Source: Acidimicrobiia bacterium
Lineage (GTDB): Bacteria; Actinomycetota; Acidimicrobiia; Acidimicrobiales; Aldehydirespiratoraceae
DNA length: 64,000 nucleotides
NCBI GenBank assembly: GCA_003231645.1
Contig: QIIW01000108.1
Span: forward strand, 2,443-66,442
Direction: 5' to 3'
Shown here piece by piece: positions 8,295 through 19,942 of this stretch. The position numbers were made by a program, and so were the translations under genes. The notes beneath the pieces are model-generated. The model did not search any database, was not told where the DNA came from, and worked only from the letters and a program-made list of their open reading frames with translations. Positions within the stretch are counted from its first letter, which is position 1. Every line of letters begins with the position of its first letter.

Positions 8295-8945
8295 ATGAAG
8301 AAACCACTGGCAGCCACACTGATTGCGGCCACCACCCTCGGCAGTGTCGCGGCCGGCGCCACCGTGTTCGGCCCCGGCCTCGCCGGCGCCCAGGACTCGA
8401 ACTCCCCGGCCCCGTCCACCGCGCCCGGCCCCGACGCCCAGCGCCGCGACCCGGCCGCCCACATCACCGAGGCGCTTCAGCCGCTGGTCGACAACGGCAC
8501 CCTCACCGACTCGCAGGTCCAAGCGGTTGTCGACGCCCTCCGGGCCGCCCGCCCCGACAAGGGCCGATTCGCGGACCGTGGCCCCCGTCGGCCAAACCTC
8601 GACAATCTGGCTGAGGTGCTCGGCACCGACGCCCAGACCCTCGGCCAGGAGCTCCGCAGCGGCCAGTCGCTGGCCGATATCGCCTCCGCCAATGGTGTCG
8701 ACACCCAGGACGTGGTCGACGCCATCGTCGCCAACATGGAGACCCGCATCCAGGAAGGCGTCGACAACGGTCGACTCGACCAGGCCAAGGCCGACGAGAT
8801 GCTCGCCAACGCCGAAGCCCGCGCCACCGACATCGTCGAGGGCAACGTCAGGCCCGGCGGCCCTCGGGGCCATCGGGGCCCGGGCAACGGTGGACCCGGC
8901 TTCGGCGGACCCGGCGGTCCGGCCGGAAATTCCGGCGGCGCCTGA
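8295..8945 (+). CDS. Secreted helical hypothetical protein with Gly/Pro-rich tail
   Basis: GAGGAG RBS; signal peptide MKKPLAATLIAATTLGSVAAG...AGA; helical segments such as LRSGQSLADIASANGVD. Confidence 0.8.
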   Translation: MKKPLAATLIAATTLGSVAAGATVFGPGLAGAQDSNSPAPSTAPGPDAQRRDPAAHITEALQPLVDNGTLTDSQVQAVVDALRAARPDKGRFADRGPRRPNLDNLAEVLGTDAQTLGQELRSGQSLADIASANGVDTQDVVDAIVANMETRIQEGVDNGRLDQAKADEMLANAEARATDIVEGNVRPGGPRGHRGPGNGGPGFGGPGGPAGNSGGA

Positions 8946-8962
8946 TCAGCCGAGCTGAATCG

Positions 8963-8998
8963 ACCCGGAGGTCGCGGGTTCGGATCCTGCCGCCACCA
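8963..8998 (+). pseudogene. Degenerate 3' half of a tRNA (initiator Met-like), possible att remnant
   Basis: acccggaggtc GCGGG TTCGGAT CCTGC cgccaCCA: 5-bp T-stem, 7-nt TTC loop and CCA end; acceptor strand shortened, no 5' half. Confidence 0.6.
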
Positions 8999-9005
8999 TC
9001 AATGA

Positions 9006-9038
9006 AGAGGCCCGGAGACCCAGCGTTTCCGGGCCTCT
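9006..9038 (+). terminator. GC-rich hairpin (intrinsic terminator-like)
   Basis: agaggcccggagac-ccagc-gtttccgggcctct, 14-bp stem with one G-T pair. Confidence 0.7.
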
Positions 9039-9263
9039 GCCGTTCTCCGGACGTATGGAACCCGCGTGCGTAGGTGGACCAACGGGCGCCACGCCGAGCT
9101 CCCGTTCGATGCCCACGACGAGATCCGGTTCGATCCCGTCGACCCGTCTCCTCACATCGATGGACTGATCGAAGCGGTCGTGCAAGCCCACACGGGAATC
9201 TTCCGGGGCTGAGCGAGCCATCGCTGCCCCCGCCCCGGTGGGATCGGAGCCGACCACCCTGAG

Positions 9264-9287
9264 TACCCAACCCCCCTATGGTTTATT
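9264..9287. promoter_or_regulatory. Putative CsoR-type operator
   Basis: tacccAACCCCCCTATGGTTtatt: C-tract pseudo-palindrome resembling TACC-C-tract-GGTA CsoR sites, about 90 bp upstream of the YHS gene, with -10-like TAGAAT/TATGCT downstream. Confidence 0.45.
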
Positions 9288-9376
9288 TCCGCGTCCAGGG
9301 GCTTAGAATTGCTATGCTCGTGGGGCACGACGCAAACAGCGTGGTGTGAACAGCCCATCGATGCGAAGGAGACGTT

Positions 9377-9523
9377 GTGACCGCAAAAGACCCGGTTTGT
9401 GCAATGGTCATCGAGGAGAGTGATGCCGTCGGCACCAGTGAGTACGACGGCAAGACCTACTACTTCTGTTCGATGGACTGCAAGAGTGAGTTCGACGAGA
9501 ACCCGGGAGACTACGCCGACTGA
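9377..9523 (+). CDS. YHS/TRASH-domain small metal (copper)-binding protein, 48 aa (absent from ORF track)
   Basis: AAGGAG RBS; MTAKDPVCAMVIEESDAVGTSEYDGKTYYFCSMDCKSEFDENPGDYAD has the DPVCxM...YYFCSxxC...F signature. Confidence 0.9.
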   Translation: MTAKDPVCAMVIEESDAVGTSEYDGKTYYFCSMDCKSEFDENPGDYAD

Positions 9524-9540
9524 CGCGAAGGGCATCGACA

Positions 9541-9894
9541 GTGGTAGGGATCGGCGCGGCACTGATCGTGTTCGTGGCCTTGTTGTTGACGGTCGGCGCG
9601 GCGCAGTGGGTATGGGCCGCTACCGGCGAGAATGATTCGACCGTCCCCGAGCGGGTTCCGTTCGCGGGCGGCGCGGAGCCGGAGTTCCATGCCTGGAACA
9701 GATTTCACATCCGTTACTACGCCATGGCCCTTCTGTTCCTTGCCTTCGACATGGAGATGGTGTTCATGTATCCGTGGGCCGTCGTCTTCGTCCGTCAAGG
9801 CCTCCTCGCACTGATCGAGATGCTGATGTTCATTCTCATCCTCGTGGTGGGGATGGTGTACGCCTGGCGCGAGAAAAGCTTCGAGTGGGATTGA
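9541..9894 (+). CDS. nuoA: NuoA-like subunit
   Basis: RFHIRYYAMALLFLAFDMEMVFMYPWA and YAWREKSFEW. Confidence 0.9.
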   Translation: MVGIGAALIVFVALLLTVGAAQWVWAATGENDSTVPERVPFAGGAEPEFHAWNRFHIRYYAMALLFLAFDMEMVFMYPWAVVFVRQGLLALIEMLMFILILVVGMVYAWREKSFEWD

Positions 9895-11165
9895 AAGCCC
9901 GGCTCGTCCATCTGGCGAGGACCGGTGAGGTACCGGTCTTCGCGGTCGTCGGCGGCGGCTACCGATCGGCGATGCATCAGCTGCGGCACGCCGATGGCAT
10001 CCGTATCGTCACCTCACCGCGACACGCGTCGGTGCTGTTGATCGCCGGAACGTTCACCGAAGCCGCGACAGAGACCGTCAACCGGGTTCACGACCAGATG
10101 GCGGGGCCACGGGTGACCGTGGGCTGGGGTCACCGCGAGCCGATGCTGGCCCCGACAAGGGCGAACCCGGCCGGTGACACTTCCGAGATCGCCGCGGTGA
10201 TCCGACGACAGTTCCACGATGTGGTGACGGGAGCGATCCAACCCGAGCCTCCCCTGCTACCCGACGTTGATCCCGTGGAGTGGCGAGGCGTCGGACCGTA
10301 CGGACATGGAGGTACCGGGATGACGGGCGGCACGCCGTACGGCAGGCCGCTGGCGCTCCGGGCACCCGACCGCGACGGTCTCGAGTTGGATCAGGTACCG
10401 GTCACCATCGGACCATGGTTCGCCGGATTCCCGCCGGGCCTCGCTCTGCGGGTCTCGCTCCAGGGAGATGTGGCCCAAGCAGTCGAGGTGGTCACCACCA
10501 GCGTTGTGTCGTCGGGCCCGCCCGGGGTGTTCACCCGGGCGCTCCACGAGCCGACACCGATCCGTGATCTCGAGATGGCTCGCGCCAGGCACCATCTTGA
10601 ATGGATGGCCGACACCCTCCTGATCGCCGGAGCCGACCGACTGTCGCTCAGAGCCGACCGACTGGCCGAGACGATCCAACCAGGTGACGTCGAGCACGTG
10701 ACTCGGCTCACGGCGGCGGCACGGAGGTCGTTGCTGCGTCTGATGACACTTCGGGGGGTCGGAGTGCTTTCGGCCGATATCGACATGGTCGGCCTCGGCC
10801 CGGTGGCCCGTGCCGCCGGGTTCTCCGACGATCGACGCACACCGGAGCCGGCGTATCGCGACATCGGCTTTCAACCGGTGACACATGATGTCGGTGATGC
10901 GTGGGCCCGGTTCGCGCAGCGAGCAGCGGAGGCGGCCCAGGCCGTCGATCTGGCCGCTCGGGCCGGCAGCCATCGCGCCTTCGGGAGCGGCGAGGTCGAG
11001 GCTCCGGACGGTCATCATCAAGCGGGCGAAACCGGACCGGCCGACCGCCTGACATCGATGCTCGACGCGGTGCTCCCCGGTATGGAGTGGGGTGACCTGG
11101 TCACCACCGTCCAATCACTCGACATCGACATGGAGTCCGTCTTCTTCGGGAGACCACCGACATGA
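9885..11165 (+). CDS. Degenerate NuoB-NuoD fusion protein with no cysteines
   Basis: NuoB-like SPRHASVLLIAGT...RVHDQMAGPR; NuoD-like VTIGPW...LRVSLQGD, LRGVGVLS, GPVARAAG..D.R, GDAWARFAQR, VEAPDG, DLVTTVQSLD; no Cys in 426 aa. Confidence 0.8.
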   Translation: MGLKARLVHLARTGEVPVFAVVGGGYRSAMHQLRHADGIRIVTSPRHASVLLIAGTFTEAATETVNRVHDQMAGPRVTVGWGHREPMLAPTRANPAGDTSEIAAVIRRQFHDVVTGAIQPEPPLLPDVDPVEWRGVGPYGHGGTGMTGGTPYGRPLALRAPDRDGLELDQVPVTIGPWFAGFPPGLALRVSLQGDVAQAVEVVTTSVVSSGPPGVFTRALHEPTPIRDLEMARARHHLEWMADTLLIAGADRLSLRADRLAETIQPGDVEHVTRLTAAARRSLLRLMTLRGVGVLSADIDMVGLGPVARAAGFSDDRRTPEPAYRDIGFQPVTHDVGDAWARFAQRAAEAAQAVDLAARAGSHRAFGSGEVEAPDGHHQAGETGPADRLTSMLDAVLPGMEWGDLVTTVQSLDIDMESVFFGRPPT

Positions 11166-12070
11166 CGACCCTCGGTATCGGCATCCAGGTGGCCGCGATG
11201 CTGGTCGGCGGCGCATACGTGCTGGCCGTCGCCGACCGCCTCATCGGCGGTTCGGGCTCGAATGTGCGCTCGGCTTTCTCGTACCCCGTCAAGCGACTGT
11301 CCTTTCTGATGTTGCAACCGGTCACCACCACCGAGCGACCGGATCTTGCCGCGTGGATACTCGCCCCCTCGCTGCTACTGGGGCTGGCGGCGGTGGGCGC
11401 GGTGTCGATCCCCATCGGTGGTCCATCGCCCGGGGGCGACATTCCGGCCGGGCTGGTGCTGTTCGGTGCCGCCATGCTCATCGTGCTGGTTGCCGTGTTC
11501 ATCTTCGGGTGGGCACCGAATTCGGTGCTCCCCATGATCGGCGGGTATCGCTTCGCCGCCATGGTCCTGTCGATCGGTATCCCCTTCTCGCTGGTTGTGC
11601 TCACGACAGCCATCCCGGCCGAGTCGCTGTCCGTGGGAACGATCGTGGAATCGCAGTCGAGCCTGTGGTACCTCCTGGTCCAACCCCTCGGGCTCCCCAT
11701 CTACCTGATCACGGCCGCGGCAATAGCTTTCTGGGGTCCATTCGACCTCCCGGAGGGCACCGATCTCGCCGGAGGGATCGTCGCCGAGGCGTCGGGCGCG
11801 AGGTTGGCGATGTGGCGGTTCGCCCGGGCGGCATTGATGGTGACATTGTCGCTGATGGGTGCGGCGGTGTTTCTCGGCGGTTATCTCGGCCCGGTGCTTC
11901 CCGGCTGGCTCTGGACCGTGATCAAGACCGCGGTGCTGTTGATCCTGTTGGCATTGACCGGGCGGACGATGGCGCGGATACGCGTCCAACGTTTCGTGTG
12001 GTTCGGGTGGGTCGTGCTGCTCCCTCTCGCATTGGTCGACGTGTTCGTCTCGGGGTGGGTGGCGTTGTGA
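11162..12070 (+). CDS. nuoH: Divergent NuoH-like membrane subunit
   Basis: GWAPNSVLPMIGGYRFAA, LVQPLG, PFDLPE, FLGGYLGP, WTVIKT; about 8 TM segments. Confidence 0.85.
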   Translation: MTTLGIGIQVAAMLVGGAYVLAVADRLIGGSGSNVRSAFSYPVKRLSFLMLQPVTTTERPDLAAWILAPSLLLGLAAVGAVSIPIGGPSPGGDIPAGLVLFGAAMLIVLVAVFIFGWAPNSVLPMIGGYRFAAMVLSIGIPFSLVVLTTAIPAESLSVGTIVESQSSLWYLLVQPLGLPIYLITAAAIAFWGPFDLPEGTDLAGGIVAEASGARLAMWRFARAALMVTLSLMGAAVFLGGYLGPVLPGWLWTVIKTAVLLILLALTGRTMARIRVQRFVWFGWVVLLPLALVDVFVSGWVAL

Positions 12071-12633
12071 ACCCCGGTCTGCTGTCGTACTTCCTCGTAT
12101 CGGCCTTCGGCATCGGAGCGGTCGTGTCGGGATGGTTGGTGTTCCGTACCGACTCCATGTTGAGAGCCGCGTACTGGCTCATGGTCTCGTTCGTGGCGGT
12201 CGGCGCCATGTTGGTCGTGCTCGATGCCCAGTTCCTCGGATTGATCCTCATCCTGATGATGTCCGGCGAGATGACGATCATGGCGATCTTCATGATCATG
12301 TTCATGATGAACCCTGCCGGGTTGAACCCGATGACGATGGTTCACCAGCACCGGACATCGATGGTTGCGGGTGTCGGGTCGTTCCTCGTTCTCGCGTGGG
12401 TGGGGGTGGTGGCAGAATTTCCCGATCGCCCCGCTCCTGCCGTCGATCCGACAGCCGCCCTCGGGGAAGAACTGTTGGGACGCTCGATGCTCATCTTCGA
12501 GTCCGCAGGTGTCGCCCTTCTCGCGGTCATGATCGGCGCCATCGCCCTGGCCGCCAAGCGGGGGCGTTTCGGAGACGCCGATGCCGGGTCCGTTGAACCG
12601 GAGATCGATGTCGATACCGGGAGCCGGACATGA
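12067..12633 (+). CDS. nuoJ: NuoJ-like subunit with Met-rich TM3/loop
   Basis: GTG start overlaps the nuoH stop; LDAQFLG, ALGEELL...LIFESAGVALLAVMIGAIALA. Confidence 0.85.
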   Translation: MNPGLLSYFLVSAFGIGAVVSGWLVFRTDSMLRAAYWLMVSFVAVGAMLVVLDAQFLGLILILMMSGEMTIMAIFMIMFMMNPAGLNPMTMVHQHRTSMVAGVGSFLVLAWVGVVAEFPDRPAPAVDPTAALGEELLGRSMLIFESAGVALLAVMIGAIALAAKRGRFGDADAGSVEPEIDVDTGSRT

Positions 12634-12932
12634 TCGATCTTCTCCTCGTCATCGCTGCTGCCGTATTCGGAATAGGGGTGTACGGGGCCCTCAGCCAGCA
12701 GTCGTTCGTGATGATCATGATGGGCCTCGAGCTGATGCTCAACAGCGCAGTGCTCGTCGTGGTCACTTTCTGGTGGGGGACGACGGGCGGGAACCCCTCG
12801 GGGCAACTGCTGGTGATCGTGATCCTCGCGGTGATGGCGGTCGAGGCGGCCATCGGGTTCGCTCTGGTGACGGCTGTCTACCGGTCCAGGAAGGCCGACA
12901 TCACCGAAAAGCTGAGGAGGCTGCGCTTCTGA
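12630..12932 (+). CDS. nuoK: NuoK-like subunit
   Basis: 100 aa, 3 TM; GLELMLN and AVEAAIGFA keep both conserved Glu. Confidence 0.92.
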   Translation: MIDLLLVIAAAVFGIGVYGALSQQSFVMIMMGLELMLNSAVLVVVTFWWGTTGGNPSGQLLVIVILAVMAVEAAIGFALVTAVYRSRKADITEKLRRLRF

Positions 12933-14845
12933 TGGTGTGGCTACCCGTGTTCACACCGCTGATCGGCGGCGTCGTCATCCTGGCTCTCAGGCGCCGACAG
13001 ACCGCGGCCAAGATGGCGTCGGTCGCGGTGATGGCGGCCACGGTGGCGGCGGCAGCGACGGTGTCCGGGGTACAGGCAACAGGTACCTGGACGTGGGGCG
13101 GGGGTCTTGACCTGGCCGTTGCGGTGACAGGATTCGGACGGGTCATGGTGATTCTCGTTCCGGTGATCGCCACCGCGGTGATCGGTTTCGCCGCCGCGAA
13201 CTCCGAGGATGACCGGGCGATCATCAAGCTGTTGGTGGTTCTCACATGGTTCGTTGCCGCCATGGAGCTCCTGGTCATCGCGGCTGACTTCCTCACGCTG
13301 CTAATCGGATGGGAGCTGGTCGGTGCGGCATCGTGGGTCCTGATCGGGCACGAGTGGCGCGATCCCGAGCGTCCCCGATCGGCCCGAGAGGCCTTCGTCA
13401 CCACCCGGTTCGGCGACCTCGGCCTCTACGTGGCGGCCGGGGCCGTCTTCGCCTCCACCGGGAGCCTTCGCTACGCCGATCTGCCGGATGCGTCACCCGG
13501 ATGGCTGGCGATCGTGGCCGCAGGGTTGGTCCTGGCGGCCGCGGCCAAGTCGGCCCAGGTTCCGTTCTCGCCGTGGTTGTTCTCGGCCATGGCCGGGCCG
13601 ACCCCGGTGTCGGCCCTCCTGCACTCGGCAACAATGGTTGCCGCCGGCGCCTACATACTGATCCGGCTTCAGCCGACCCTTTCCATGGTGAGCTGGTTCG
13701 CTCCGGTGGTGGTGGGGATCGGCCTCGTCACAGCCCTCGCCGGCGGCATGGTCGCCCTGGCCCAGCAGGATCTCAAGAAGGCCCTCGCCGGGTCGACATC
13801 GGCCCAGTACGGTTTGATGTTGGTGGCGGTGGGTGCCGGATTCACGGCGGCAGCCGCCGGGCATCTCACGGCTCATGCCCTGTTCAAGTCACTGCTGTTC
13901 CTGGCCGCCGGGGTCGCCCTTCATGCCAGGGGCACACTTGATCTGAGCAGGTTGCGGCTCGGATCTGCCCTCCCGCGAGTGGCGGTGCTCTTCGGCATCG
14001 GCGCGTTGGCCCTGGGCGCGGTTCCGCCGCTCGGAGCGGCGTTCACCAAGGAGGCCGTGCTGGCGGGTGCGTTCCATTCCGGTATCTGGGTGGGTCTGGG
14101 GACCGCAGCCGCCGGCCTGCTCAGCACCCTGTACGCGGGGAGGCTCCACCTGCTGGCCTACGGACCCGGCCCGACCGAGGAGCTTCACTCCCGACCGCGA
14201 CGAGGCGAGGTGGCGGCGCTCGGACTGCTCGCGGCACTGACCCTGCTGCTCGGAATACTGTGGCTCCCCGGCGGAGACGCCGCCCTGGAGCGGATGGCCG
14301 GTGGGGCGATCGTCTCACCGACCCGAGTTGAAACGGTGCTGTCGTGGACACTCGTCGCCCTCGGGCTCGCCGTGGTGGGTGTTGCGTGGCGACGGGGCCG
14401 ACTCGTGACACTCGGACTGCCGCCCCGTACTCGTGAGTTCATCGCCGGGTGGTGGGGCATTCCGACCGGGGCCCGTGTGCTGATCGTCGAACCGGTGTCC
14501 CGCCTCGGGCAATGGCTCTCCATCGCCGACCGCAAGGTGTTGGCGCGGCTCGCCGATGCCGTGGCCGGCTTCGGCCAACTCATGTCGCGCGTCCTCACGC
14601 AGGCGGTGGATCGGTCGATCGACGCCGTCGTGTGGCGCGTGGGGACGGGCACGATCCGTGGAGCCGCAATATCCCGCCTGGCGGATGACCGAGGTGTGGA
14701 CGCGAGCGTGGAAAGTCTGGCCTCGGGAATCGGCATGGCGGGGACACAGAGTCGTCGCACGCAGACCGGAATGTCCTATCACTACTACACGATGATGATG
14801 ATCGGGCTCGTGGCGGCTATTGCCGTCGCGGCTCTTTGGAGGTAA
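12932..14845 (+). CDS. nuoL: NuoL-like antiporter subunit
   Basis: GWELVG, TRFGDLG, AKSAQVPFSPWLFSAMAGPTPVSALLHSATMV, HALFKSLLFL, AFTKE. Confidence 0.92.
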   Translation: MVWLPVFTPLIGGVVILALRRRQTAAKMASVAVMAATVAAAATVSGVQATGTWTWGGGLDLAVAVTGFGRVMVILVPVIATAVIGFAAANSEDDRAIIKLLVVLTWFVAAMELLVIAADFLTLLIGWELVGAASWVLIGHEWRDPERPRSAREAFVTTRFGDLGLYVAAGAVFASTGSLRYADLPDASPGWLAIVAAGLVLAAAAKSAQVPFSPWLFSAMAGPTPVSALLHSATMVAAGAYILIRLQPTLSMVSWFAPVVVGIGLVTALAGGMVALAQQDLKKALAGSTSAQYGLMLVAVGAGFTAAAAGHLTAHALFKSLLFLAAGVALHARGTLDLSRLRLGSALPRVAVLFGIGALALGAVPPLGAAFTKEAVLAGAFHSGIWVGLGTAAAGLLSTLYAGRLHLLAYGPGPTEELHSRPRRGEVAALGLLAALTLLLGILWLPGGDAALERMAGGAIVSPTRVETVLSWTLVALGLAVVGVAWRRGRLVTLGLPPRTREFIAGWWGIPTGARVLIVEPVSRLGQWLSIADRKVLARLADAVAGFGQLMSRVLTQAVDRSIDAVVWRVGTGTIRGAAISRLADDRGVDASVESLASGIGMAGTQSRRTQTGMSYHYYTMMMIGLVAAIAVAALWR

Positions 14846-14850
14846 CGCAG

Positions 14851-16329
14851 ATGTTGACGTTGGCCATTTTCGTGCCGCTTCTGGTGGCGATGATCACGCT
14901 GGCGATCCCGAGACGACATGAACATCTGGCGCGCCCGTTGGCCATCTGGACCAGCTTCATTCCACTCGTCGTGGTGGCGATCTCCTGGAAACGCTTCGAG
15001 TTCGGAACCGGGTTCCAGCTCGTGGAGTCACTGACATGGATTCCGTCGCTCGGGATCTCCTACAAGGTCGGCGTCGACGGGTTGTCGCTCCCACTGGTCG
15101 CCCTCACCGCGGTGCTGTTCACCGCGTCGATGGTGTTCCCCTTCGACGATCGCGGCAAGCCTCGCCCGTACTACGCCACATTCCTGTTCCTGGAAGCGAT
15201 CTCGCTGGGAGTCTTCCTGTCACTCGATCTCATTCTATTCTTCGTGTTCTGGGACCTCAGCCTGGTCGGGATGTATTTCCTGATCGGTGTCTGGGGGCAC
15301 GGCAACGCCCAACGTTCGGCCCTCAAGTTCTTCCTCTACACCCTCCTCGGTTCGTTGGCCCTGTTGCTCGGCATCCTCGGGATCTACCTCTACACGAATC
15401 CCCGGACCTTCGACATGGTCGAGATCATCCGCACCAATCCTGTGCCGGCGGGCGGGTTGGCCGCCACGCTGATCTTCGTCGCCCTTGGCATCGGGTTCGC
15501 GGTCAAGACGCCGCTTGTGCCGTTCCACACCTGGCTCCCGCCGGCCCACGTCGACGCGCCGGCGCCCGCGTCGACGATCCTCGCCGGGGTCCTGCTGAAG
15601 ATGGGAACCTACGGCTTCATCCGGATCTCGTTGCAGATGCTTCCCGAAACGTTCCAGCGTTTCGCCCTTCCCCTCGGGGTGATAGCCGTTGTGAGCATCC
15701 TCTACGGCGCGCTCGTGGCCATGGCCCAGACCAATCTCAAGCGCCTCGTCGCCTATACCAGTGTCAATCACATGGGGTACGTGATCCTCGGGATAGCCGC
15801 GGCCGGGGCACTCGGTGTCGGCAGCGAGGCCTCCCGATCGATCGCCATGACCGGAGCGGTGGTGGAGATGGTCGCACACGGGCTGATCACCGGGGCCTTG
15901 TTCCTGGTCTCGGGATCGATCCTCGCCCGAGGCGAGACCTACGAGCTCGACCAATACGGGGGTCTGGCCAGCCGGGCGCCGCGACTGGCGGGGATCACCA
16001 TGCTGGCCGCGTTCGCCAGCCTCGGGTTACCGGGCTTGGCGGGGTTCGTGGCCGAGTTCCAGATATTCGCCGGAACGTTGGGGGTGTTCCCGTGGCTGGC
16101 TGCCATCGGTTTGCTCGGCATCGTGATCACGGCGGCGCTTTTCCTCCGCATGATCCAGCAGGTCTTCCTCGGGGATCTCCCCGCCCGTTGGGACGGATGG
16201 CCGGATCTGAGGAAAGCCGAGATGTACGCCCTGGTGCCCCTGATGGCACTCGTGGTGGTGATCGGCGTGACGCCCTCGTGGCTGGTCCGGGTCATCAACA
16301 CCTTGTCCCAGGTCGTGGCGCGGGGGTGA
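14851..16329 (+). CDS. nuoM: NuoM-like antiporter subunit
   Basis: GVDGLS, KFFLYT, AVKTPLVPFHTWLPPAHVDAP, LLKMGTYG, GLPGLAGFVAEF; GGAGG RBS. Confidence 0.93.
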   Translation: MLTLAIFVPLLVAMITLAIPRRHEHLARPLAIWTSFIPLVVVAISWKRFEFGTGFQLVESLTWIPSLGISYKVGVDGLSLPLVALTAVLFTASMVFPFDDRGKPRPYYATFLFLEAISLGVFLSLDLILFFVFWDLSLVGMYFLIGVWGHGNAQRSALKFFLYTLLGSLALLLGILGIYLYTNPRTFDMVEIIRTNPVPAGGLAATLIFVALGIGFAVKTPLVPFHTWLPPAHVDAPAPASTILAGVLLKMGTYGFIRISLQMLPETFQRFALPLGVIAVVSILYGALVAMAQTNLKRLVAYTSVNHMGYVILGIAAAGALGVGSEASRSIAMTGAVVEMVAHGLITGALFLVSGSILARGETYELDQYGGLASRAPRLAGITMLAAFASLGLPGLAGFVAEFQIFAGTLGVFPWLAAIGLLGIVITAALFLRMIQQVFLGDLPARWDGWPDLRKAEMYALVPLMALVVVIGVTPSWLVRVINTLSQVVARG

Positions 16330-16362
16330 CATGTCTGCGTCCATGATCCGTGAATTGCTTCC

Positions 16363-17790
16363 ATGACCAGGGAGATGGGCCAAGCCGCGCTCGACATACT
16401 CCCGGCCCTCGTTTTTGCCGGCGGGGCCATTCTGTTGATCTTCTACGTCATGTTCGTGCCCCGGGCATTGCAGGTGTGGTCGGCGCTGGGTGCCACCGTG
16501 GTGCTCGCGGTCGCCGGATTCGCCAGCGGCTGGTATCTGGGCCGGGCCCCCAACATCACCTTCTTCGGGACTTTTGCCGCCGATCGAACGTGGCTCTGGG
16601 GAACGCTCATCATCGTGGTAGTGACCCTGCTCACGGTTGCTCTGTCGGTGGACTGGTTCCGGTCGGACCCGCGCCAGGGCGAGTACTACGTGTTGCTCCT
16701 CCTGTCGGCACTGGGGGCCGTGTTGCTGGCCGGGGCGGTCGACCTGATGGAGCTCATCGTGGCGATGCTGTTGTCGTCGGTGACCGGATACACGCTGACC
16801 GCGTTTCACCGCAGGTCACGGGCGGCAACCGAGGCGGGCATGAAGTACTACCTGCTCGGTGCTCTCGCCAATGGGGCAATGGTGTACGGCGTTGCGCTGC
16901 TGTTCGGGCTGGCCGGTGGCACTTCGTTCGCCGACCTCCGTTCGGGGTTGGTCGACGCCGACTCGACCGCACTGATCGTCGGTTTCGCCATGGTGGCCAT
17001 CGGGGTGGCGTTCAAGCTCGGAGCGGTCCCTGCTCATCAGTGGATGCCCGATGTCGCCCAGGGCGCACCCGCACCGGCATCCGCTTTCCTGCTCGTCGCC
17101 GGCAAGGTAGGGGCGCTGATCGTCTTGATGCGACTCGTGGCCGTACTCCCCGAGTCGGCGGTGGGATGGCGACCGCTGATAGCCGTGATCGCGGCGCTGA
17201 CGATGACACTTGGCAACCTGGCGGCGCTGTGGCAGGACGACGTTCGGCGCATGCTGGGATGGTCGTCGGTGTCACAGACCGGATATGGCCTACTGGCGAT
17301 CGTCGCCTTTGGTCGAAGCGATCTTGCCGTTCCGTCGCTGCTGTTTTTCCTGGCCGCCTACGCAATGGGCAACATGGCGGCGTTCGGCGTCGTCGTCAAG
17401 TTGCGTGGGCTCACCGACCGGGAGTCCTTTCGTGGATTGGGGTCGACTCATCCCTGGCTCATGGGGGCGTTGGTGGTGAGCTTCTTGTCGTTCATCGGGA
17501 TTCCCCCGCTCGGTGGCTTCGCCGCCAAGCTGCTGTTGATGGGCGCCGTCATCGATTCGGGTTACGCCTGGCTCGCCGTTCTGACCGTGATCAATTCGGC
17601 CATCTCGTTGTTCTACTACGCCAGGGTGATGGGACCGGCGTACTTTGATTCGGCCGATGAGCCACGACCACTCATGGGGAGCCTCGCCTCCTGGGCCGTG
17701 GGTGTGGCCGTCGTCGCCGTGGTCGCCATCGGCGTCGCCGCCCAGCCCCTGGCGGCGGCCTGGCAGGCGCTGTCGCCCCTCACCGGCTAG
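16363..17790 (+). CDS. nuoN: NuoN-like antiporter subunit
   Basis: GEYY, EAGMKYYLLG, FKLGAVPAHQWMPDVAQGAP, GIPPLGGFAAK. Confidence 0.92.
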   Translation: MTREMGQAALDILPALVFAGGAILLIFYVMFVPRALQVWSALGATVVLAVAGFASGWYLGRAPNITFFGTFAADRTWLWGTLIIVVVTLLTVALSVDWFRSDPRQGEYYVLLLLSALGAVLLAGAVDLMELIVAMLLSSVTGYTLTAFHRRSRAATEAGMKYYLLGALANGAMVYGVALLFGLAGGTSFADLRSGLVDADSTALIVGFAMVAIGVAFKLGAVPAHQWMPDVAQGAPAPASAFLLVAGKVGALIVLMRLVAVLPESAVGWRPLIAVIAALTMTLGNLAALWQDDVRRMLGWSSVSQTGYGLLAIVAFGRSDLAVPSLLFFLAAYAMGNMAAFGVVVKLRGLTDRESFRGLGSTHPWLMGALVVSFLSFIGIPPLGGFAAKLLLMGAVIDSGYAWLAVLTVINSAISLFYYARVMGPAYFDSADEPRPLMGSLASWAVGVAVVAVVAIGVAAQPLAAAWQALSPLTG

Positions 17791-17833: not shown

Positions 17834-19192
17834 TCAGTCGTCAACGGTCGGGATCGTGAACCCGACCGCGGCACCGCCCATCGGCGACTCACCGGCCGCG
17901 ACCTGGCCGCCGTGGCTCTCGGCAACCTGGCGGACGATCGACAGGCCGAGGCCCGAGCCGGGCAGCATGCGGGTCGACTCGACGCGGTGAAACCGGTCGA
18001 ACACCCTCGAACTCTGGGCGGCCGGAATCCCGGGCCCCGAGTCGTGGACGGTGACCGAGCCACCGTCAACCTCGACCACCACCTCCGATCCGGCCGGACT
18101 GAACTTCGCGGCGTTGTCGATCAGATTGCGAATGGCCCGCGACAACGCCTCGGGGCGGCCCTCGACGACCGCCGAACGCACGACCTGGAGTTCGATGGGA
18201 CGGCCGGTGCGTCGCCGGGTCCGTTCGACGACGGGCGCCGCCAGTTCGTCCAGCCGGACCGGCTGACCGGCCTCGTCGTCGCGCAGATCGGAGGCCAGAT
18301 CGACCAACTCGGTGACGAGGTCGGTGAGTTCACCCAATTCGGCGTCGAGATCCGACACGACGGCCCGATGTTGCTCGGGGGTGAGGTCACGGCCACCACC
18401 CAGTACGTCGACGTTGGTCCGAAGGCTGGTGAGAGGGGTACGGAGTTCATGGCTGGCATCCATGACCAGTCGGCGTTGCTGCAGCCGCGACTCGGACAAC
18501 GCCTCCAGCATCCCGTTGAAACTGGCGGCCAGCCGACCCACTTCGTCACCACCCGCCTGATCGACGGGGTGGGCGAGATCGCCGGTGGCGGCGACCCGTT
18601 CGGCCGCTTCGGTGAGCTGAGTGATCGGCCTGACCGTGCGGCGGGCTATGAACCACGCGGCGAGTGCGGCCGCCGCCGTCGCCAGCAGGCCGATGAGGAG
18701 GATGCGGGCCCGCATGGCCGATAGAACCGACTCGGTCTCCCCCAGTGGCCTGCCCAGCTCGACGAAGTTACCTCCCGGTGCCGACACGATGACGGTACGG
18801 ATGGATCCTGCCGATCCTCGGTCGGTGCCGAGTACCGGTCCGGCGACTGCCTCGAGCAGGACGGCTGGATCGGGCTCGGTGCCGAAACCCGGCCCCAGAG
18901 CCAGGACCACGTTGCCTTCGGCATCGATGATCCGGGCCAGCACGTCGAACCCCACGATCGACCCGAACGGGTCGTTGCGTCGGATGTGGTTCCCCGGCTG
19001 GAATCGGCCGGGCCCGGGTCGGGCGAACCCCCGCGGCTGGCGCGACACCTGTTCGGCACGCGTCATCAGGTTGCGGTCGATCTGGCCGAACAGTTCATCC
19101 CGGGTCGACCGATAGACCGAGAGCCCAACGATGGCCACCACGACCGCCACCACCACGGCCACCGCGAGCGTGACCCTGGCGCGCAGGCTCAC
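17834..19192 (-). CDS. HAMP-domain sensor histidine kinase (MprB-like)
   Basis: 2 TM, HAMP, DASHELRTPLTS H-box, NLIDNAAKF, DSGPG, GSGLGLSIV. Confidence 0.93.
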   Translation of the reverse strand: MSLRARVTLAVAVVVAVVVAIVGLSVYRSTRDELFGQIDRNLMTRAEQVSRQPRGFARPGPGRFQPGNHIRRNDPFGSIVGFDVLARIIDAEGNVVLALGPGFGTEPDPAVLLEAVAGPVLGTDRGSAGSIRTVIVSAPGGNFVELGRPLGETESVLSAMRARILLIGLLATAAAALAAWFIARRTVRPITQLTEAAERVAATGDLAHPVDQAGGDEVGRLAASFNGMLEALSESRLQQRRLVMDASHELRTPLTSLRTNVDVLGGGRDLTPEQHRAVVSDLDAELGELTDLVTELVDLASDLRDDEAGQPVRLDELAAPVVERTRRRTGRPIELQVVRSAVVEGRPEALSRAIRNLIDNAAKFSPAGSEVVVEVDGGSVTVHDSGPGIPAAQSSRVFDRFHRVESTRMLPGSGLGLSIVRQVAESHGGQVAAGESPMGGAAVGFTIPTVDD

Positions 19193-19869
19193 GTTCCGTC
19201 GTCCCTGACCACATAGCCGACGCCACGCACCGTGTGGAGAAGCCGAGGGAGGCCTCCCATCTCGATCTTCCTGCGCAGATAACCCACGTAGACATCGAGT
19301 GCCTTCGAGTCGCATTGGAGCTCGCCGTCCCAGACCCGGTCGTAGATGACCTCGCGGCTCAGCACCACACCGGAGTTGATCATCAGTACCTCGAGCAACT
19401 CGAATTCGGTGCGGGAAAGATCGAGCAGGCGCGAACCACGGGTGACACGACGACCGGCCGGGTCGAGAACCAGATCGGCCACCACCAACTTGTCGGCATC
19501 GTCGTCGGCCGAGGGACGCAGACGAGCCCGGATTCGGGCCAACAACTCCTCAAGAGCGAAGGGCTTCACCAGATAGTCGTCGGCCCCGGCGTCGAGTCCG
19601 GCCACCCGATCGGGTACCTCATGGCGGGCGGTGAGCATGAGAACCGGTGTGTCGTCCCCCGACTGCCGCACCTTCCGGCACACGGTCAAACCGTCGACGT
19701 TGGGCATCGACACGTCGAGGATCAGCATGTCGGCGCGACGCGACGCATGCAGTTCAAGGGCCCGGGCCCCATCGTTGGCCGTGATCACCTCATAGCCCTC
19801 GAGTCCGAGGGCGCGCTCCAGGGAATCTCTCACCCGGCGGTCGTCCTCGGCGATCAGGATCGTTGACAA
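19189..19869 (-). CDS. OmpR-family response regulator (MprA-like)
   Basis: TTG start with GGAGG RBS; AEDD, LDVSMP, GADDYLVKPF, DVYVGYLRRK, HTVRGVGY. Confidence 0.93.
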   Translation of the reverse strand: MSTILIAEDDRRVRDSLERALGLEGYEVITANDGARALELHASRRADMLILDVSMPNVDGLTVCRKVRQSGDDTPVLMLTARHEVPDRVAGLDAGADDYLVKPFALEELLARIRARLRPSADDDADKLVVADLVLDPAGRRVTRGSRLLDLSRTEFELLEVLMINSGVVLSREVIYDRVWDGELQCDSKALDVYVGYLRRKIEMGGLPRLLHTVRGVGYVVRDDGT

Positions 19870-19942
19870 GGGGCTCCTCCGTCCGGGTCGGGGCGCGCCA
19901 CGCGGACGCACGCACGATAGCCCCCGATCATGGAAGGCCCGG

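Follow-up and report, generated by a model that had tools for sequence, protein, structure and literature searches.

The window analysed here is a stretch of 64,000 nucleotides from contig QIIW01000108.1 of an Acidimicrobiia bacterium (assembly GCA_003231645.1), and the system in question is a nine-gene operon within it that resembles complex I and is headed by a gene for a YHS protein (Table 1). Nine open reading frames on one strand have overlapping or near-adjacent ends, with spacings of +17, -10, -4, -4, -4, -1, +5 and +33 nucleotides along YHS-A-B/D-H-J-K-L-M-N, so the tight operon described in an earlier note on this DNA stands. Its Pfam set comprises YHS, Oxidored_q4, Oxidored_q6 (weak) together with Complex1_49kDa, NADHdh, Oxidored_q3, Oxidored_q2 and three copies of Proton_antipo_M. 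The YHS protein matches PF04945 at 51.8 bits (cut-off 30.3), and the three Proton_antipo_M proteins have NuoL, NuoM and NuoN as their top NCBIfam matches, with the Nuo models outscoring Mrp. A complete membrane arm (A, H, J, K, L, M and N) is encoded according to Pfam and NCBIfam; with the same models no nuoC, nuoE, nuoF, nuoG or nuoI gene was found within the operon, as the note had claimed, and NuoC and NuoI are also missing from the locus maps of relatives. The GC content of the operon is that of the remaining window.

Table 1. Positions of the operon genes and upstream features in the window.
Feature	Position	Strand	Basis
Degenerate 3' half of tRNA-Met(CAT), then hairpin	8962-8998 (hairpin to 9035)	+	Comparison with host tRNAs
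Degenerate 19-bp C/G-tract palindrome	9226-9244	+	Matrix from YHS upstream regions of relatives
Weak CsoR-type box TAC-N9-CTA (operator of the earlier note)	9261-9281	+	Matrix score
YHS/TRASH protein	9377-9523	+	48 amino acids, GTG start; PF04945
NuoA homolog	9541-9894	+	Oxidored_q4 family call; family versus canonical alignment
NuoB/NuoD fusion	9885-11165	+	Pfam, AlphaFold, structure alignment, hhalign
NuoH homolog	11162-12070	+	Pfam NADHdh; 97 family versus 20 canonical sequences
NuoJ homolog	12067-12633	+	188 amino acids; 90 family versus 18 canonical sequences
NuoK homolog	12630-12932	+	87 family versus 17 canonical sequences
NuoL homolog	12932-14845	+	637 amino acids; NCBIfam; 83 family sequences
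NuoM homolog	14851-16329	+	TIGR01972, 504 bits (cut-off 263.8)
NuoN homolog	16363-17790	+	TIGR01770, 326.6 bits (just below cut-off 332.6)

Contig C1 of the host genome (G000, 96% complete) carries an operon for 14 nuo subunits, which settles whether a separate full nuoA-N set exists, and a second nuo cluster; the YHS-headed operon is therefore an extra copy, and the host has three complex I-like operons in total. The two clusters on C1 adjoin each other at 36.5-52.4 kb and 56-67 kb (L005 and L006), one with 14 subunits and the other without E/F/G.

The third gene encodes a fusion of NuoB and NuoD. Its AlphaFold model has a pLDDT of 86, falling below 50 in the linker (residues 129-157); VIA-align aligned residues 1-120 to NuoB/PSST (Z 11-12) and residues 160-421 to NuoD (Z 24.0, root-mean-square deviation 2.7 A, 258 aligned), and matches of the fold to the large subunits of FHL, MBS and MBH reach Z 21-24. 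The Gly-rich linker is the most conserved stretch of the protein and may be ordered only within the complex. The ligands of the iron-sulfur (Fe-S) cluster N2 are not conserved in the family, no column with Cys above 10% being found by hhalign and column counts in 221 family B/D proteins, and neither NiFe Cys pairs nor any other conserved Cys occur in them; the canonical NuoB of the host retains the CC pair and the other two N2 Cys. The earlier note had stressed a soluble subunit free of Cys, and indeed the eight Nuo-like proteins here contain 0 Cys in 2737 residues. Total Cys absence characterises this copy and not the family: avoidance of Cys throughout the complex was considered and rejected as a family-wide feature, as only 59 of the 221 B/D proteins are free of Cys (mean 2.0 Cys). 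The NuoD loop GPxHPSTHG aligns to GPWFAGFPPG in the family, and the RMDY stretch is not conserved. In NuoH, the YE motif has lost its conserved Glu (E157 in E. coli, assigned by motif), and most acids of the loop between transmembrane helices (TM) 5 and 6, which belong to the quinone (Q) chamber and E-channel, are missing together with the TM1 loop motif; NuoA (104 family versus 20 canonical sequences) has lost the canonical K..YECG loop. Because the B/D Cys, the NuoD His motif, the NuoH acids and the NuoA loop are all gone, N2, quinone binding and the Q-to-E-channel link, as judged from sequence, cannot be present in known form, and the claim that this is no normal NADH:quinone oxidoreductase is borne out.

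The antiporter-like subunits have kept most of their proton axis. NuoL has the complete set of charged residues (E128, D162, K206, H231, H315, K319 and K373), each 92-100% conserved in the family. NuoM has Asp135 in place of the TM5 Glu and keeps K219, H233, K250, H307, H343 and E402, and NuoN keeps K218, K248 and K389, with the TM5 Glu replaced by Leu136 and His305 by Gln.

The subunits NuoA, NuoJ and NuoK have gained Met. With near-invariant new Met defined as occurring in at least 90% of the family and at most 15% of canonical sequences, there are 3 in A, 3 in K and 12 in J, versus 0 in H, 0 in L, 1 in M and 0 in N; the gain is not compositional drift, since 18 of these positions lie in A/J/K and 1 in H/L/M/N. 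The Met content of A, K and J is 6.1, 8.0 and 8.4%, against 2.3, 3.9 and 2.4% in canonical sequences, and that of H, L, M and N is not raised. The Met-rich NuoJ of the earlier note is thus real (16 Met in 188 residues), and the enrichment is broader than claimed, NuoA and NuoK being included. NuoA keeps D70 and E72 and has new M71, M73, M76 and H56; NuoK keeps E34 and E72, has new M28, M30 and M69, and shows SQQ in place of the cytoplasmic RRN, with loss of the Arg pair. These four acids are 94-100% conserved in the family. NuoJ has E68 and H93 in addition to its 12 new conserved Met, and alignment to Thermus and Paracoccus NuoJ shows that its TM3 motif has changed from VYAGAI to MMSGEM; M65, E68, M69, M72, M76 and M80 fall on the same 120-degree arc of an ideal helix. 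In E. coli, NuoJ V58, Y59 and A62 belong to the D79-E36 water wire and I63 is the gate (preprint 10.64898/2026.01.27.702182), and a TM3 pi-bulge gate of NuoJ is described in a review (PMC10212512); this preprint and all papers cited by PMC number are quoted from the parts of their text that were available. At those four positions the family has Met, Met, Glu and Met in 98-100% of 90 sequences, so that three new NuoJ Met and the new Glu coincide with published E-channel positions. On the topology assumed for complex I, the new Met form a series that starts at the cytoplasmic J loop, crosses the E-channel site and reaches A TM2 and J TM5 at their outer ends.

The YHS protein is likely a soluble Cu(I) carrier, as its sequence suggests: C8, M10, C31 and C35 are invariant in 45 of 45 aligned sequences. 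YHS is the first gene in 77 of the 78 GTDB loci with nuoA, the single exception sitting at a contig end. The metal-binding module varies by clade, being a YHS gene, a fused HMBD or a His/Met linker, and all 120 relatives listed for the Thioclava protein carry the PF19335 HMBD. Three loci of the HMBD clade (L136, L139 and L141) have an acidic Asp/Glu-rich linker instead of the HMBD and retain the MSMxEM motif. His-rich C-terminal tails occur in 11 listed NuoJ sequences; a Roseivivax NuoJ (L004, 16790-17692) contains 35 His, most of them in an extended C-terminal tail.

Of 8000 candidates, 820 are relatives of the B/D protein, and a search with a B/D profile gave 367 clusters with E-values of 1e-30 or lower. 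Confirmed GTDB stretches number 137 and belong to Actinomycetota, Chloroflexota, Gemmatimonadota and, singly, other groups; 80 of them were fetched. Among 401 Actinomycetota genomes sampled, no fewer than 29 carry the operon, a lower bound that includes one genome flagged unpublished (G318) and counts genomes with family-type A/B-D/H/J matches at the locus (30 loci inspected, L118 excluded as canonical); a tally of 213/401 was rejected as prevalence, most of its matches being canonical NuoD. A NuoJ search gave 32 plasmid records from Proteobacteria and Actinomycetota, and within Streptomyces the family is widespread across species. The gene order [YHS]-A-B/D-H-J-K-L-M-N is identical in all listed loci as far as the contig extends. 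In a tree of 70 NuoM sequences, with canonical NuoM of actinobacteria only as outgroup, the 51 family members form a single clade apart from it (FastTree support 0.995). The clade divides into three groups. One, to which this operon belongs and whose support is only 0.65, has a Gly-rich GGxGM linker and is mostly YHS-headed. In the second, an Actinomycetes clade (support 1.0), the B/D linkers are rich in His or in His and Met, and in the third, a clade of Rubrobacteria and Rhodobacterales (support 1.0), B and D are separated by fused HMBD repeats. Ratios of non-synonymous to synonymous substitution rates (dN/dS) are 0.02-0.26 over all nine genes in 9 pairs, the B/D fusion being fastest at 0.13-0.26. 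Taken together, the sequences describe a monophyletic family that is conserved, mobile and subject to purifying selection. In a Thioclava plasmid (L121, 8293-17555) and a Rhodococcus plasmid (L123, 9421-17697) the whole operon is flanked by insertion sequence (IS) elements, an arrangement resembling a composite transposon without other cargo.

Copper markers, labelled by Pfam or record annotation and then searched by tblastn within 10 kb, lie near 45 of the 70 loci having at least 5 kb of flank. After de-duplication they lie near 42 of 65 loci versus 0 of 40 control stretches, a comparison in which the marker queries came from family loci, favouring detection there, and related loci are not independent. 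The de-duplicated counts are 12/23 for Actinomycetota, 9/13 for Chloroflexota, 9/11 for Gemmatimonadota, 10/10 for HMBD-clade genomes, 2/7 for other handles and 0/1 for others; the controls were 20 canonical nuo stretches, which have little flank (0/20), and 20 arbitrary 20-kb stretches (0/20), and the rate in host windows is 3.8%. Neighbours include cupredoxins, multicopper oxidases, cytochrome c and oxidase genes. Among plasmids carrying the operon, seven of nine have copper markers and the remaining two hold it between IS elements; a tenth, from Martelella, has only nuoA and a truncated B/D gene, after cueR. The flanks of 22 mostly marker-free loci, judged by eye, are mixed, with one NhaA-like gene.

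In many relatives the promoter regions also point to copper. When a TAC-N9 matrix built from sites beside csoR in other genomes is run on the host genome, four P1B-ATPase promoters score highest. Strong CsoR-type boxes are found at 17 of 32 Actinomycetota YHS loci versus 0 of 20 canonical nuoA regions, though for 15 of the 17 the locus had itself contributed a training site, the exceptions being L056 and L061. At L029, L031, L033 and L066 csoR is divergent from YHS with the operator between them, and at L082 it lies directly upstream. The 19-bp palindrome is strong before YHS in 12 of 15 training relatives and stands directly before csoR-copA in L052 and L078; over the host genome its matrix did not single out copper genes. 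A direct repeat with 11-bp spacing precedes YHS in nine of 24 Chloroflexota loci (L040, L042, L043, L044, L047, L050, L055, L063 and L083) and is missing from 40 control loci; several of the repeat loci lie near OmpR-type two-component genes and multicopper oxidases, which suggests that the regulator differs in Chloroflexota.

In our proposal, the product of the operon is the membrane arm of complex I, devoid of electron-transfer parts, and would work as a proton-driven Cu(I) exporter, a reading from sequence to which we give about an even chance. It is the simplest one because the proton axis is kept, the redox end is destroyed, a Met/Glu site has appeared, three kinds of soft-metal module occur and control is of the copA type. 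The complex would be a multi-proton Cu(I)/H+ antiporter in which the E-channel has become a Met relay fed by a YHS or HMBD chaperone, an ATP-independent exporter of the cytoplasmic membrane, and this fuller form is in our estimate as likely to be right as wrong. At the same balanced estimate, plasmids and islands would have spread it over at least four phyla. The YHS protein (in other clades the fused HMBD or the His/Met linker) would pick up cytoplasmic Cu(I), and the cofactor-free B/D cap with its Gly/Met linker would serve as dock and scaffold above NuoH/A. Cu(I) would enter at a cytoplasmic Met/His patch (J M76-M91 and H93; K M28 and M30), bind in mid-membrane at the former E-channel (J M64, M65, E68 and M69, flanked by A D70 and K E34) and exit through an outer Met set (A M71, M73 and M76; J M141). 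Inward proton flow through L/M/N, the pump being reversed, would drive export via the E34/E72 switch and the J TM3 gate, and in Actinomycetota an excess of copper would relieve repression of the operon by CsoR. With assumed gradients, Cu(I) export costs 46-83 kJ/mol, or 3-5 protons, which would explain why three antiporter-like subunits are kept.

Several points weigh against this proposal. The Met path rests on the general topology of complex I rather than on a model of the complex, and loss of the TM5 Glu and His305 in NuoN may break the coupling between N and K. The marker and box counts carry the biases given with them. The copper-gene neighbourhood anticipated by the earlier note holds family-wide and not for this copy: neither this operon nor any of the five relatives closest to it, among those flanked by 5 kb or more, has a copper neighbour, a tblastn marker search of window positions 1-30000 found none, and 23 of the 65 de-duplicated loci are without a marker. 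The CsoR-like operator proposed there has the correct shape and is weak here, scoring 10.3 bits and ranking 40 among 44 host loci at that score, and two of the 20 canonical nuoA upstream regions score higher (11-12); the palindrome copy, at 9.4 bits, ranks 20 of 23 host sites over 9 bits. The host has P1B-ATPase matches on seven contigs, so a further exporter is not obviously needed; it also has two csoR genes. Finally, in the available text on Streptomyces lividans 66, 400 uM Cu(II) induced 11 genes of the island, and SLI1027-1034, the likely family member there, are absent from this set (PMC3698927).

The Met relay, the YHS and HMBD modules and the copper neighbours are compatible with either direction of transport. 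The Met path could accordingly import copper, supply outer cuproproteins, or let copper binding or redox gate an ion pump, the last variant being close to the proposal of PMC8233155; the cupredoxin, multicopper oxidase, cytochrome c and oxidase genes among the neighbours and the co-expression with copper genes in Marinobacter atlanticus (PMC8233155) speak for such a role. We consider it unlikely, while leaving it real weight. Uptake is downhill and presumably would not need three antiporter-like subunits, and for gating by copper redox no redox cofactor ligands are left. Genes under CsoR are expressed when copper is in excess, and the operator type shared with csoR-copA therefore implies expression under copper excess. 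If the copper neighbours were instead island hitch-hikers, the complex could exchange Na+ (or K+) for H+ or act as a proton module, in the service of salt, pH or stress homeostasis. Mrp offers a precedent without redox chemistry, many of the carriers were isolated from marine sources, and a distribution in marine, not terrestrial, relatives has been described (PMC3314556, PMC6676996, PMC6002675). This is improbable in our view, as the operon has no homolog of the Na+ module of Mrp/MBH, the changes in A/J/K go to Met, a soft-metal ligand, YHS heads nearly all loci, the family is widespread in Streptomyces species, and copD and czcD copies in Kocuria flava S43, in the available text, are increased alongside the nuo genes.

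A redox role would take the form of a Cu(II) reductase (PMC3698927) or of an arm that borrows NuoC/I/E/F/G from other nuo clusters of the host. Such clusters exist here, the operons at L014 and L019 adjoin a canonical cluster (from which they are divergent), and the B and D folds are retained. Against this stand the loss of the N2 ligands, the NuoD His motif, the NuoH acidic chain and the NuoA loop motif, and the listing, in the available text, of a terrestrial relative of K. flava without nuo genes, which suggests a stand-alone function; the Cu(II) reductase claim cites, in the text available, an E. coli paper on NDH-2, an unrelated flavoprotein (PMC3698927). We regard a redox enzyme as very improbable. 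That the operon is simply a decaying complex I duplicate, as the earlier note had allowed and as the fast divergence of the B/D fusion might suggest, is refuted by nine intact genes, dN/dS of at most 0.26, constant gene order and the single NuoM clade. What probability remains belongs to other metals or unforeseen roles.

If the exporter proposal is true, this would be a new class of bacterial copper exporter, present on the plasmid records and in the Actinomycetota genomes counted above, whose members are currently annotated as 'NADH dehydrogenase' or 'hydrogenase', and the nuoAHJKLMN 'marine adaptation genes' would be reinterpreted. The family is also a natural experiment on complex I coupling, with the antiporter axis kept and a putative metal site in place of the E-channel's quinone end, so that the reversibility of complex I and the role of the J TM3 gate become directly testable. 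Even with the direction wrong, a cofactor-free complex I under purifying selection calls for explanation.

Around the operon, the gene upstream (8295-8945) encodes a probably exported protein with a Gly/Pro tail and no clear Pfam assignment, and downstream lies a convergent histidine kinase/response regulator pair (17834-19911). About 380 bp upstream of YHS is a tRNA-Met remnant matching host tRNAs at 33 of 39 columns (score 50, against a maximum of 36 for 300 random 47-mers); with its hairpin it may be an old integration or insertion scar. ARAGORN called no tRNA in the window, a sigma-70 promoter and terminator scan of 8900-9560 gave 0 sites, and an Rfam scan of 8800-9600 gave matches at chance level only. 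Among close relatives, the operons of L021 and L022 directly follow rpoBC-like genes. In L018 the gene directly after nuoN (12587-12988) looks by eye like the methionine sulfoxide reductase MsrB.

Clusters of this kind have appeared in print. Penn and Jensen described a 'second partial NDH-1 operon' as marine adaptation genes, patchy over Actinobacteria and Proteobacteria (PMC3314556), and the same view, with the order nuoA-hypothetical-HJKLMN in marine and not terrestrial relatives, is taken in PMC6676996 and PMC6002675. Cruz-Morales et al. reported an eight-gene 'duplicate NADH-ubiquinone reductase', read as a Cu(II) reductase, in the S. lividans 66 metal island, where the adjoining SLI1026 is copper-induced (PMC3698927), and Eddie et al. 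found nuoADHJKL, said to lack nuoM/N, inside a copper cluster of M. atlanticus and co-expressed with its genes, no copper challenge being mentioned in the available text, and proposed a copper-redox-driven ion pump (PMC8233155). By gene order and genus spread these clusters (Salinispora partial 2, Streptomyces SM17/SM18, K. flava S43, SLI1027-1034 and M. atlanticus nuoADHJKL) are probably the same family; they share the gene order, the patchy spread and the site in a metal island or copper cluster (PMC3698927, PMC8233155), and their accounts, in the parts available, are silent on the B/D fusion, the loss of ligands, the lining with Met, the YHS/HMBD modules and the CsoR boxes. A literature search, in which subscription papers were thinly covered, found no biochemical or mechanistic study of the family and no mention of the Met lining, and 'copper' is not mentioned in the available parts of PMC4453560, PMC8165549 and PMC4758237. 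The earlier statement that no characterised system of this form is known calls for some softening, as the gene order has matches in print, twice linked to copper; a copper-export role is not known to have been described for the complex I family.

With complex I/NDH-1 the family shares A, H, J, K, L, M and N in canonical order, the NuoB and NuoD folds, the NuoL axis, the M/N lysines and the equivalents of A D79/E81 and K E36/E72. It differs from it and from the 11-subunit forms in lacking C, I, E, F and G and in having B fused to D without Fe-S or quinone residues; the NuoH chain is lost, the J TM3 Tyr is replaced by Met with a new Glu nearby, and 18 new Met and YHS/HMBD are added. Ehr and the group 4 hydrogenase-like complexes (Ech, Hyf, MBH and MBS) are likewise complex I-like with altered catalytic subunits. 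They keep Fe-S clusters in B- and I-like subunits, whereas the family has neither such subunits nor NiFe Cys pairs. CusA, Ctr1 and CopA have a Met-lined Cu(I)/Ag(I) path and chaperone-like metal-binding domains, and CusA is driven by the proton motive force; their folds are unrelated, CusCBA crosses the outer membrane and CopA uses ATP. Mrp is a redox-free assembly of antiporter-like and J/K-like subunits that moves a cation against protons (PMC8165549, PMC10212512), and would be the best analogy for the working principle of the complex; the family differs from it in having NuoA, NuoH, a B/D cap and three Nuo-type antiporter subunits and no MrpE/F/G homolog. By analogy, the complex would work like Mrp, yet by defining features it belongs to neither Mrp nor complex I.

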